IMG/VR virus record: IMGVR_UViG_3300020463_003399
Coordinates: 25,561 to 89,560 of that record
DNA: 64,000 bases
From: a virus
Strand: one strand, 5' to 3'
In this document: positions 25,104-59,483 of the stretch, in pieces
Layout: each line of letters opens with the position of its first letter
Position numbering within the stretch: the first letter of the stretch is position 1
Notes under the pieces: generated by a model
What the model was told of the DNA's origin: nothing
The model's database searches: none
Seen by the model: the letters and a program-made list of their open reading frames with translations, nothing else
Position numbers and translations under genes: made by a program

Positions 25104-25607
25104 ATGAAAATATTAACTCCAGAAAATCACTGTTATGAAATGAACAGTTTACCAGAGAATGAAATAGAAGACATAAGATATTGTGTAATGGATGTAACAG
25201 ATAAAGCAGAACCAGATTTCTTTTTTATTCCATTAGTATTCATCGAAACATTTAATGCACCAAGTATAAGTCTTAATATTGGAAAACATCAAATAGAAAT
25301 GCCAATAGATTGGAATATATTAATAGGAGATAGAGATATAGGTGAACTAGAATTTGTGCCTCTTACAAGCATAAATGAAAGAACTTTTCAAACTATCTTG
25401 ACAAATCCTCTAGGAGGATTTACAATGACATGGGAAGACATAAAAGTAAACAATGTATTTGCAGATGTAAAATGGTTTTTTCCAAAGTTAAAGTATGGAC
25501 ATATTTTAACAGTTCCTTTAGAACATGGACCAAAACCAAAGTGTGCATATTTCGTTAAAGACTTGAATAGAATTCCAGACGTATTACATAGTTATGACTT
25601 TTTTTAA
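25104..25607 (+). CDS. Hypothetical protein
   Basis: ORF directly after uvsW. Confidence 0.65.
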   Translation: MKILTPENHCYEMNSLPENEIEDIRYCVMDVTDKAEPDFFFIPLVFIETFNAPSISLNIGKHQIEMPIDWNILIGDRDIGELEFVPLTSINERTFQTILTNPLGGFTMTWEDIKVNNVFADVKWFFPKLKYGHILTVPLEHGPKPKCAYFVKDLNRIPDVLHSYDFF

Positions 25608-57345: not shown

Positions 57346-58215
57346 GTGTCAGAAATCATAGAACAATTTAAAAAGTATAGAAAGCAGATAGACTTAGAGT
57401 TTCTATCAGATACCCATGTGCATTATTGTACGCCTTGTTATGGTGGACAAATATCAGAAGGATTTTTTCGTTCTTGGTCAAAAGCACATATGACGTATAC
57501 AAAATACGGCATTCCATATTCAGTAACTACATCAGCAAATGAATCTTTAGTAACAAGAGCAAGATGTCATATGGTTGCGTATATGATGGCAAATCCAAAA
57601 GCTACACACTTAATGTTTATTGATGCAGATATTAACTTTGATTGTATTGATATTTTACATATGGTACAACATGATAAAGATATTATTGTAGGTGCATATC
57701 CAAAGAAAGATTTAGATTGGCGTGAGTTTGAAAGAAAAGTACTTCAAGGTAAACAACGTAGTGTTGAAGAATTGAAATCATTAGGTTCTAAGTATGCATT
57801 AAATTTTGATTGGATTGTAAACGAAGAAACTAATGAAAGAGAAATTGACGTAAAAGACGGATTGATAAAACTAAAAGATGCGGCTACAGGATTTATGTTA
57901 ATCAAACGTGAAGTATTTCTTAAAATGATGGACGCATATCCTGACTTATATTTTCATAATGATTTAGAATTACCAGAAAACGAAGCCAAATACACTTATC
58001 TATTTTTTGATGCTATGCATGAAAAAGAAACAAAAAGATATCTATCAGAAGATTATGCTTTTTGTAGAAGATGGCAAGCATTAGGTGGCGAGGTTTGGTT
58101 AGATCCACTTATTAAACTGGATCATATAGGTCACTTTACGTTTCCTGGTGAAATCAGTAAATTGTTTATGTCAACAAATAGTACTAACTCACCCTCAGAT
58201 GAGTTAGATACTTAA
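57346..58215 (+). CDS. GT-A-fold glycosyltransferase-like protein
   Basis: TPCYGG, ESLVTRAR, LMFIDAD, TGFMLIKR, SEDYAFC, LDHIG; promoter TTGACA-N17-TATTCT at 57294. Confidence 0.75.
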   Translation: MSEIIEQFKKYRKQIDLEFLSDTHVHYCTPCYGGQISEGFFRSWSKAHMTYTKYGIPYSVTTSANESLVTRARCHMVAYMMANPKATHLMFIDADINFDCIDILHMVQHDKDIIVGAYPKKDLDWREFERKVLQGKQRSVEELKSLGSKYALNFDWIVNEETNEREIDVKDGLIKLKDAATGFMLIKREVFLKMMDAYPDLYFHNDLELPENEAKYTYLFFDAMHEKETKRYLSEDYAFCRRWQALGGEVWLDPLIKLDHIGHFTFPGEISKLFMSTNSTNSPSDELDT

Positions 58216-58216
58216 G

Positions 58217-58264
58217 TTATTTTCCGTTAATAAAGTCTAGTTCGTCATCAGTGTAAGGCCACAT
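58217..58264 (-). CDS. 15-aa micro-ORF MWPYTDDELDFINGK
   Basis: SD GAGGAG 7 nt before the ATG. Confidence 0.55.
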   Translation of the reverse strand: MWPYTDDELDFINGK

Positions 58265-58358
58265 GATGCATCTCCTCTTTTCTTTTATTTTTTTTATCTA
58301 AAATACCTCTTCCAGCATCACTAGATATTATTATACTTGATACTAAACCTAGTATCAT
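58248..58358 (-). CDS. Possible 36-aa ORF MILGLVSSIIISSDAGRGILDKKNKRKEEMHHVALH
   Basis: Open frame filling the gap; no adjacent SD. Confidence 0.3.
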   Translation of the reverse strand: MILGLVSSIIISSDAGRGILDKKNKRKEEMHHVALH

Positions 58359-58374
58359 AAAGATGCGAATGAAT

Positions 58375-58497
58375 TTAGGCTATCTCCTTGCCACACATTA
58401 AGTCTTTCGCTTTTTTGTGATGGCCTTGTCTTGCTAATTCAGTCGCCGCTCTCATACGTCCAATATGTTCAAACCATGCAAGTAATCTTTTAACCAT
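58375..58497 (-). CDS. 40-aa micro-ORF MVKRLLAWFEHIGRMRAATELARQGHHKKAKDLMCGKEIA
   Basis: Starts 3 nt after the upstream stop; basic amphipathic helix. Confidence 0.65.
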   Translation of the reverse strand: MVKRLLAWFEHIGRMRAATELARQGHHKKAKDLMCGKEIA

Positions 58498-58500
58498 ATA

Positions 58501-58662
58501 CTAGATCCAACCTTTCAGATTTGGATTTACGTTACCGTATGTTAAATTCTTTTGTCTTTGTTCTAAGTCAACCAAATCTACAGAATTGCTTAGATAGACA
58601 TCAACTGGTGTAGTTGATTCCCAACCCCATTTAAAAGTAAAAAGTCTTTTTATAAAGTTCAT
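58501..58662 (-). CDS. 53-aa DUF3563-like small protein
   Basis: SD AGGAG; YLSNSVDLVDLEQRQKNL motif. Confidence 0.65.
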   Translation of the reverse strand: MNFIKRLFTFKWGWESTTPVDVYLSNSVDLVDLEQRQKNLTYGNVNPNLKGWI

Positions 58663-58676
58663 TATTAGTTCTCCTA

Positions 58677-58859
58677 TTAGTTTTTAATTCTATTCGTTTT
58701 ATGCCAAGTTGGTGCTTTCCCTGTCAAACACATTTGTTCGTAGGCATACTTCCAATCTTTTTTGTATTCTGTTTTCGCCCATATCAAAAACTCTCTGTGG
58801 CGTGGCTTTTCACTATCCGCAAAGACATTAAGTAGGGCATCGAAAAAATTCGTTACCAT
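58677..58859 (-). CDS. 60-aa small protein
   Basis: SD GGAG; WAKTEYKKDWKYAY. Confidence 0.7.
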   Translation of the reverse strand: MVTNFFDALLNVFADSEKPRHREFLIWAKTEYKKDWKYAYEQMCLTGKAPTWHKTNRIKN

Positions 58860-59007
58860 TCTCTAACTCCGTTCCAAATTGTAGATGCTTAAGGTAAGCA
58901 ATACCCCGGTCTCTCCCGGCGCCGCTCTTGTAAGGCATGGGTTATGCCACGGTCTTTCCCTGTCGCCAACACAGTGTAAACTTTTGGGAAGTATCGCAAC
59001 TGTGTCC
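58860..59007 (-). ncRNA. Putative structured leader / sRNA with five hairpins
   Basis: GC-rich; hairpins at 59006-58968, 58962-58948, 58948-58934, 58919-58906 and 58900-58886; CTAAATA promoter at 59013-59019. Confidence 0.6.
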
Positions 59008-59186
59008 ACTTCTATTTAGTCTAAATATGTTTGAAAAGTGACAGAATTACTGTTTTTTTTCGACAATCCCGGTATGTCATAAACGCAGGGCTAAAGCATA
59101 GCTTGTATAACTTATGAACATATCAATTTATCTATTGCTTTTTGTTTCAGAATGTGATATTATAGATATAATAATACGAGAAAACC

Positions 59187-59483
59187 ATGGAATATAAAAC
59201 AGTACATTGCGTAAAATATAACAAGGAACTACGTGCCTTAGATAAAGCACCTTTTCCAGGACCTGCAGGTAAAGAAATATTTGAAAAAGTTTCTGAACAA
59301 GCATGGAATGATTGGCTAAATTTTCAAACAATTCTTATTAATGAAAATAGATTAAATCTTATGGAAGAGAATGCAAGAGATTTTTTAACAAAACAAAGAA
59401 ATAAGTTTTTCTTTGAGCCAGGAGAATTAGATATGCCAGAACAATTTGTAGATCCTAACAAAGTGCCTGATTTGAAATCGTGA
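59187..59483 (+). CDS. yggX: Fe(II)-trafficking / oxidative damage protection protein YggX
   Basis: [38 protein letters not shown]; promoter TTGCTT-N17-TATTAT at 59135. Confidence 0.9.

Follow-up and report, generated by a model that had tools for sequence, protein, structure and literature searches.

This report concerns a segment on the minus strand of a 64,000-nucleotide (nt) stretch of viral DNA (positions 25,561 to 89,560 of the IMG/VR record IMGVR_UViG_3300020463_003399), which we call the window and to which all coordinates refer. Judged by comparison with its relatives, the segment is a conserved structured RNA which ends at the Shine-Dalgarno sequence (SD) of an array of very small open reading frames (ORFs). 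We consider it probable that the segment is the window's single copy of a family of hairpin-array 5' leaders that head a late microprotein operon, and that such leaders act in cis, with reiterated hairpins as sites for a trans-acting factor. A preliminary description, made from the sequence alone, had proposed an undescribed phage regulatory RNA at this place. In kind this was right; what we find is a 5' leader rather than a demonstrated small RNA (sRNA), sponge or aptamer.

A family of hairpin-array leaders

Relatives were collected in two ways. At least 119 viral contigs contain an exact 26-nt pattern taken from the 3' module (CCGGGGTATTGCTNNCCTNAAGCATC), and a search anchored on the downstream protein, which is independent of the RNA sequence, gives 218 loci. 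The regions upstream of the relatives of the first small ORF (ORF1) in viral contigs align with the window RNA. From the pattern-based and the protein-anchored sets together we extracted 113 distinct leaders. A covariance model (CM), R1, built from the last repeat unit and the hairpin that follows it (H5 below), scores 59.8 bits on the window (E = 3e-19) and finds a single copy in the 89.6 kb of phage DNA of the record that were searched, of which the window is a part. Each of three near-complete genomes of 306-343 kb also holds one copy.

The family matches no entry of Rfam 15. At the gathering threshold the sole match in the whole window is a tRNA, with none on the element, and permissive scans, run to E <= 10 on the window region and to E <= 5 on 12 related loci, found nothing on the element either; the earlier statement that the RNA fits no known family therefore agrees with Rfam. 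With blastn against cultured phages we were not able to find any match for the window region, a 12-kb stretch or a type-A leader (one class of the relatives). The family may nevertheless be included in an IMG/VR-derived catalogue of 2023, which comes from the same data source and describes the same kind of object: it lists 10,006 unnamed candidate structured RNAs, in which cis-regulatory candidates lie no more than 25 nt upstream of phage genes, and its text does not mention DUF1127, a domain discussed below (PMC10690425).

Across the family the order of parts is NTAAATA, five nucleotides, G(+1), a variable 5' hairpin, one to four units, an optional hairpin with a C-rich loop, the last unit, GGUAU, a hairpin with a C-rich loop, a spacer and the SD. 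The leader, the promoter box and the three operon genes ORF1 to ORF3 all lie on the minus strand. In the window the promoter and leader are composed as follows.

59019-59013, minus strand: late-promoter-like box CTAAATA, an exact match to this minor variant of the family's (T)ATAAATA
59007, minus strand: predicted transcription start, +1 G, 5 nt (GAAGU) past the box
59006-58968, minus strand: H0, the 5'-terminal hairpin (hairpin I of the preliminary description), long and imperfect
58967-58948, minus strand: unit 1 (H1), GGCGACAGGGAAAGACCGUG, with flank GGCGAC, a short stem, loop GAAAGA (58958-58953), then C
58948-58934, minus strand: H2, GGCAU-AACCC-AUGCC, with a C-rich loop (58943-58939)
58933-58922, minus strand: conserved single-stranded linker UUACAAGAGCGG; the family form in the alignments is UUACAAG(U/C)GAUUGAC
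58921-58905, minus strand: unit 2 (H4, the last unit), with loop GAGAGA (58915-58910) and G58920 bulged
58904-58901, minus strand: spacer GUAU, which with G58905 makes the family's GGUAU
58900-58886, minus strand: H5, UGCUU-ACCUU-AAGCA, with a C-rich loop (58895-58891)
58885-58860, minus strand: G-poor spacer with the SD GGAG (58870-58867)

The leader, about 150 nt long, runs from G59007 to the SD, which is followed by the ATG at 58859. It is GC-rich, with 50-54% GC across 58850-58999 against about 33% in the flanks. All sequence features from which the preliminary description started (CTAAATA, the first hairpin, the units, the hairpins with C-rich loops and the SD) are present where it saw them, and so are the GC-rich composition in AT-rich surroundings and the end at the SD of a micro-ORF array.

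With two units and the C-loop hairpin, but without a third unit, the window leader has five adjacent hairpins; relatives have 3-8. In H0 the outer stem pairs GACACAG (59006-59000) with CUGUGUU (58974-58968) and the inner stem pairs ACUU with AAGU, around the loop CCCAA. The stem of unit 1 is among the weaker ones of the family (two G-C pairs, a bulge or mismatch, and two further pairs). Unit 2, whose repeat sequence GGCGCCGGGAGAGACCGGGGUAU spans 58923-58901, forms the pairs C58921-G58905, C58919-G58906, C58918-G58907, G58917-C58908 and G58916-C58909.

The tandem unit on which the preliminary description centred is indeed the core of the family. A unit hairpin has a stem of 4-7 base pairs (bp), mostly 4-5, and a loop N-A-N-A-G-A followed by C. 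The 113 leaders contain 169 hairpins of this kind, 1-4 per leader, and the most frequent loops are GAAAGA (50), GAUAGA (46), AAAAGA (22), GAGAGA (17) and CAAAGA (13). The GG/CC unit hairpins that had been drawn are present, but their stems are longer than two pairs. Variant units with the loops GGAAGUU or CCAAAGG come on top of the 169, which brings the total to 1 to 4 or more per leader. Units are usually preceded by (U/A)GAC or GCAC.

In many members a hairpin with a loop ending in CC directly follows unit 1 (the H2 loop ends in CC in most relatives), and the linker comes next. After the last unit and GGUAU stands the hairpin with a C-rich loop (UUCCUC, UCCCUC, ACCUU); the C-rich loops seen in the family are UUCCUC, UCCCUC, CUUUCCC, and (U/A)AUCC or AACCC. 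From H5 to the SD the distance is 10-21 nt (median 15), and the spacer has 2% G. Loops and linkers are very highly conserved in the alignments. The 5'-terminal hairpin varies in sequence across the family, but a hairpin is always there. The smallest members consist of one unit and the last hairpin (locus L150).

The stems covary. The type-A alignment contains 43 sequences that were collected with a pattern spanning H4 and H5. In it 98.3% of the cells form standard pairs, and 124 cells are changed on both sides, against 41 in shuffled alignments; none of 500 shuffles reaches 124. If the partners are slid by 1-3 columns, the covariation score drops from 0.288 to 0.042 or less. The variation lies in H1, H2 and H3 (two pairs of H1 occur as UA, CG, GC and AU, and H2 shows CG, GC, GU and AU). 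H4 and H5 are invariant here because the collecting pattern covers both of them.

For H4 we see the missing variation in the protein-anchored alignment, where double changes affect four pairs (23 cells, against 5 in shuffles; none of 500 shuffles is as high). Its variant stems include GCCGG/CCGGG, CUGAG/CUCAG, CCUAG/CUAGG, CCGUG/CACGG and GCCAG/CUGGC. The stem of H5 is invariant in sequence in the main class; one subgroup has GGAUG/CAUCC instead, with the loop CUUUCCCAAAAA, and a second has the stem displaced to AUGCU/AGCAU, so that the hairpin with its C-rich loop is kept though the letters change. For H0, RNAalifold on the window and its three nearest relatives gives 15 pairs, six of them with compensatory changes. 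Furthermore, G-U pairs are frequent (34 and 43 cells at two pairs of the type-A alignment, and 43 among 796 unit pairs), and since this holds on the minus strand only, the minus strand is the RNA strand.

Pairing between the loops is less consistent. Two pairings found by eye, H1 GGAUA with H2 UAUCC and H1 GGGAAAG with H5 CUUUCCC, were not adopted, as they fit some subgroups and fail in others and in the window. A table of the first-unit motif, the last-unit motif and the H5 loop (the H2 loop was left out) revealed no clean covariation. By eye, type-A leaders allow a pairing of the H5 loop with the SD (UUUCCU with AGGAGA), which the window does not. RNAalifold pairs the H2 loop of the window, UAACCC, with GG(A)GUUA, a pairing that is broken in one of the four sequences and invariant in the rest.

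In a subgroup of relatives (L014, L019, L022, L025, L110, L125, L150 and others) the 5' hairpin is replaced by GAGC-GAC-CUCA-GCUC-AGAAAAAA-UGAG. An H-type pseudoknot whose third loop is A-rich is possible in this variant, in which the pair CUCA/UGAG becomes AUCA/UGAU in L023 and L114. The pseudoknot riboswitch models of Rfam do not match it. Away from the leader, L025:2857-2921 (plus strand) gives a sub-threshold match to the RNA thermometer ROSE_3 (35.3 bits with a gathering threshold of 43, E = 0.001), which ends at an ATG.

Promoter, predicted start and transcripts

As in T4-type late units, a TATAAATA box stands about 6 nt before the start, in the window as its CTAAATA variant. At the equivalent position of 81 unique relatives we find ATAAATA 73 times, CTAAATA four times (the window among them), and GTAAATA and TTAAATA twice each; the nearest relatives, L001-L004, have TATAAATA where the window has CTAAATA. 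A G stands five bases past the box in 107 of the 113 unique leaders, and in 85 of 113 the minimum free energy (MFE) fold of the first 75 nt begins pairing exactly at this +1 G. The predicted transcript therefore opens with a flush 5'-terminal hairpin. The start near G59007, which had been proposed from the spacing of the box, agrees with these counts.

Four marine metatranscriptome runs contain contigs from close relatives, about 93% identical. One contig of 251 nt aligns with 58762-59007 and has three further unaligned letters; that it ends at the predicted start is a weak hint of a transcription start near there. Other RNA-library contigs align with 58760-58973, 58816-58942 and 58301-58565, and ORF2 and ORF3 are covered too, which gives a weak hint that the leader is transcribed jointly with ORF1. 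No contigs were found over 59008-59400 and 58100-58300, and we do not use this as evidence.

A terminator scan from the leader to ORF1 found no terminator-like site. The preliminary description had left the choice between a new phage sRNA and a leader. Since there is no terminator before ORF1, the RNA contigs run into ORF1, and the array always lies 10-21 nt before the SD, the element is a 5' leader and a free sRNA is not supported.

The DNA around the promoter has further features. In the window, CTAAATA stands back to back on both strands (59019-59013, minus; 59021-59027, plus), in the palindrome-like arrangement TATTTAG-A-CTAAATA. The plus-strand copy points at a YggX-like Fe(2+)-trafficking gene (59187-59483), and L001-L004 share the arrangement, which looks like a divergent late promoter pair. 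Both boxes are rarer in the whole AT-rich window than expected (3 against 10.7 for TATAAATA, 9 against 20.6 for CTAAATA), as one would expect if a signal is avoided outside promoters.

A DNA dyad, CAG-N5-CTG, is present in 47 of the 113 leaders, where the background is 0.02 per 120 nt. Its position relative to the late box is fixed, 20 nt before it or, inside H0, 20 nt after it, and the dyad often continues with TACTAT, as CTGTACTAT. The copy of the window, ACAGTAATTCTGT (59053-59041, minus), has the core intact, lies farther upstream (-33) and is followed by CACTTT, not TACTAT. The dyad may be a regulator site combined with a second, -10-like promoter.

The microprotein operon and its carriers

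The operon behind the leader consists of very small genes.

58859-58677, minus strand: ORF1, 60 amino acids (aa), of the L(T/I)(W/Y)AKTEYxxDWx(Y/F)AY family (about 55-70 aa; relatives by protein search)
58662-58501, minus strand: ORF2, 53 aa, DUF3563-like by profile score and BLASTP, with the C-terminal tail NPNLKGWI
58497-58375, minus strand: ORF3, 40 aa, of the GRxRAAxELxRQG..AKxLM family
58358-58248, minus strand: candidate fourth small ORF, 36 aa, from the ORF list
58207-58184, minus strand: terminator-like hairpin from the terminator scan, which would end the operon

The order of this cassette, namely the AKTEY protein, a DUF1127 or DUF3563 protein and the GRxRAA protein, is conserved, and further tiny genes follow. 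In complete loci the leader always precedes a cassette gene. In nearly all of them that gene encodes the AKTEY protein; it is a DUF1127 gene in L019 and an ORF3-type gene in L087. The second slot holds a DUF1127 protein in most relatives (47.6 bits in type-A operons). In the window, ORF2 is 37% identical to ORF2 of L035 by BLASTP (E = 2e-7), which itself passes the DUF3563 cut-off with 34 bits. ORF3 matches the third gene in the operon of L041 with 57% identity across 30 aa (E = 3e-11).

The ORF1 family has no significant match in Pfam or PHROGs, and the AlphaFold model of ORF1 is a low-confidence helical hairpin (pLDDT 67). Among 185,579 species genomes it has three matches only, all on contigs of metagenome-assembled genomes (MAGs). 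These MAGs (L212, L213 and L214) are labelled Flavobacteriales and Neomarinimicrobiota, and one of the contigs is 335 kb long; the three are probably mis-binned contigs of jumbo phages.

A tail N-x-N-L-(K/R/Q)-G-W-(V/I) is common to three otherwise unlike types of cassette protein. It is found in ORF2 of the window (58501-58524), in DUF1127 proteins and in one AKTEY-type protein (loci L041:11124-11384, L020:779-1039 and L038:6352-6570), and it may be a docking or sorting motif. A gene for about 140 aa often lies 3' of the cassette (L020, L023, L048, L071, L084 and L104). It has a signal-peptide-like start and contains ...DMLNKRDDGAKMVYS...GDTITW.P.SKGHNV, and by eye its product looks like a pseudoazurin or cupredoxin.

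The record of the window encodes a T4-type tail sheath, a terminase and a ribonucleotide reductase, and the 25 kb before the window hold the T4 gp20 portal, the gp23 capsid, gp15 and baseplate genes. The Pseudomonas jumbo phage PA5oct has a large terminase with 54% identity to the one encoded here. Relatives that carry the RNA include genomes of 306-343 kb which encode Gp23, one of them complete with terminal repeats. From the T4-like genes and the size of these relatives it follows that the carriers are uncultured marine T4-like jumbo phages. The label "provirus" of the record was rejected, because its 5' part consists of T4-like structural genes and holds no host DNA.

Proposed function and its alternatives

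We propose that the leader would act in cis on the mRNA of the operon. The flush hairpin at its 5' end could protect or stabilise the end of the mRNA; 5'-terminal stem-loops stabilise enterobacterial mRNAs. The reiterated N-A-N-A-G-A loops are putative binding sites for a trans-acting factor, which would set the translation, stability or processing of the operon mRNA. The variable copy number of the units favours reiterated protein sites over a fixed aptamer. The most economical candidate for the factor would be the cassette's own arginine-rich microprotein, that is, the protein of the DUF1127/DUF3563 slot or the GRxRAA protein. There is a precedent for this in Rhodobacter, where the DUF1127 protein CcaF1 binds RNA and is co-transcribed with hairpin-array sRNAs (PMC8034643), and by analogy with this arginine-rich, RNA-binding protein the cassette proteins may be proposed as the factor.

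Several observations weigh against this interpretation. ORF2 of the window scores only 18.8 bits against DUF3563 (17.7 in a second scan), which is below the cut-off, and a DUF1127 gene was not found in the 89.6-kb record, the window operon included. The RNA-library contigs are assembled, they come from relatives that are about 93% identical, and DNA carry-over is not excludable. The MFE of the window leader as a single sequence is ordinary (z = -0.52), which is uninformative rather than negative, and consequently the case for the RNA rests on the comparison with relatives. Finally, in about half of the leaders one frame stays free of stops for at least 80% of the length; coding was rejected because of indels and compensatory changes, not because of stops.

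The nearest analogue of the phage leader is the CIN1 locus of Alphaproteobacteria, with the cuckoo/CcsR/NfeR RNAs (Rfam ar14, RSs0680). CIN1 RNAs lie in the 5' or 3' untranslated regions (UTRs) of DUF1127 genes (PMC8034643). The cuckoo RNAs have 2-4 adjacent hairpins with variable stems and CCUCCUCCC in every loop, and the thermodynamic matcher that describes them asks for 9-27 nt in the loops and 6 bp or more in the helices (PMC4615179). Both systems are modular: one loop motif recurs in adjacent hairpins whose number and stems vary. In addition, both have pyrimidine-rich hairpin loops and are co-transcribed with small arginine-rich proteins of the DUF1127 type.

On the other hand, the reiterated loop of the phage RNA is the purine-rich N-A-N-A-G-A followed by C, and no loop of the family contains CCUCCUCCC (those of the window are GAAAGA, GAGAGA, AACCC and ACCUU). 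The architecture of adjacent hairpins without a multiloop is that of the cuckoo RNAs, but the number of hairpins, five in the window and 3-8 in relatives, falls outside their range. The phage C-rich loops have 5-7 nt instead of 9-27, and the stems 4-7 bp, with unit stems mostly at 4-5. The phage element follows a late promoter and in every case precedes the cassette, and while DUF1127 is adjacent in most relatives, in the window its slot is DUF3563-like. The Rfam cuckoo covariance model gave no match, with limits of E <= 10 for the window region and E <= 5 for the 12 loci. The phage leader is therefore an analogue, not a member, of the cuckoo/CcsR-DUF1127 loci.

The same analogy gives rise to a different explanation, which we regard as possible but rather doubtful: the leader may be cut from the operon mRNA to yield a stable trans-acting RNA, whose C-rich loops (H2 and H5) would pair with the SDs of host or phage, just as CcsR/cuckoo RNAs are processed from DUF1127 transcripts. 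The conservation of the C-rich loops in the family and the link to DUF1127 genes fit this idea, as does the place of the CIN1 sRNAs in the UTRs of such genes (PMC8034643). The k-mer depth of the RNA contigs is also higher over the leader than over ORF2 and ORF3, though this depth is no measure of expression. Against it, we find no terminator and know of no conserved processing site, the RNA contigs extend about 100 nt into ORF1, and the loops have just 5-7 nt and lack CCUCCUCCC. The preliminary description had also considered an anti-SD sRNA here; since such pairing is possible in many relatives and absent in the window, we regard it as a non-conserved feature.

Leader and cassette could also form one self-contained viral RNA-protein module, an idea that rests on the same analogy and that we think unlikely. 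In such a module a cassette protein would recognise the NANAGA hairpins and set free or stabilise the hairpin-array RNA derived from the leader. Late in infection this RNA would use its C-rich loops to influence host or phage translation in trans, or it would tie up an RNA-binding protein of the host. If true, this would be a phage counterpart of CcsR-CcaF1.

A likeness of another kind exists to the N-boxB (nut) system of phages lambda and P22. There, short 5-bp hairpins with purine-rich loops (GAAAA, GAAGA) follow a conserved single-stranded box, and the partner is a small arginine-rich phage protein. The leader shares the short hairpins, the purine-rich loops and the conserved single-stranded box ahead of them. 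However, its loops have 6-7 nt with a conserved 3' AGA and a variable first base, and its hairpins are reiterated 1-4 times in the translated leader of a late operon, with no sign of an antitermination context.

Small hairpins in groups of two or more, with identical conserved loops and a position shortly before an SD, are also found in tandem-hairpin riboswitches such as Guanidine-II (mini-ykkC). A riboswitch or tandem aptamer that controls the SD through a small ligand, bound by each unit or by the H4-H5 module, would account for the high conservation of loops and linkers, for the position directly upstream of the SD and for the ability of the H5 loop UUUCCU to pair with AGGAGA in many relatives. 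We nevertheless consider it quite unlikely. Guanidine-II has ACGR tetraloops, fixed at two in number, whereas the phage loops are NANAGA and the units number 1 to 4 or more, down to a minimal form of one unit and H5 (L150); this argues against a fixed form of the tandem aptamer that had been suggested at first. Neither a multi-helix junction nor a conserved pseudoknot is found, the pairing of loop and SD is not conserved and not possible in the window, and no Rfam riboswitch model matches, even at E <= 10.

The remaining initial suggestion, a sponge of the CsrB/RsmZ type that titrates a GGA-binding host protein (CsrA/RsmA), we hold to be very unlikely. Like CsrB and RsmZ, the leader has reiterated hairpins with GGA, and most units carry it at the 5' border of stem and loop (AGGAAAGAC, UGGAUAGAC, GGGAGAGAC). 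But the GGA is half buried in the stem, where it straddles the closing pair, instead of standing as A-N-GGA-N in the loop, and some units have no GGA at all (GCAAAGAC, CCAAAGG). We found no CsrA gene in the 89.6-kb phage record, and of the CsrB and RsmZ models none fits the element (the sole weak match, to CsrC, lies elsewhere in L035). The RNA is a leader without a terminator after the array rather than a free RNA. With the GGA at the border and no CsrA found, the sponge is unsupported.

To the idea that there is no RNA structure at all, and that the segment encodes a small peptide (a 48-aa frame, 59009-58863) or consists of DNA operator palindromes, we give next to no credence: the open frame across the leader in the window and about half of the relatives, and the conserved DNA dyad near the promoter in part of the family, stand against indels of 1, 2 and 4 nt that shift the frame, compensatory changes in the stems, G-U pairs that are frequent on the minus strand only, and the lack of a conserved start codon or SD ahead of the frame.

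In summary, hundreds of viral contigs from the ocean carry this structured RNA, which is widespread, occurs once per genome and has strong support from covariation. It is tied to the poorly understood DUF1127 and DUF3563 microproteins, and bacterial members of DUF1127 bind RNA or sensor kinases. Its modular design, with a reiterated loop motif, a variable copy number and an invariant 3' module, suits direct binding and reporter tests that need no cultured host. The element could therefore be a tractable handle on the roles of these microproteins and on post-transcriptional control in giant marine phages.

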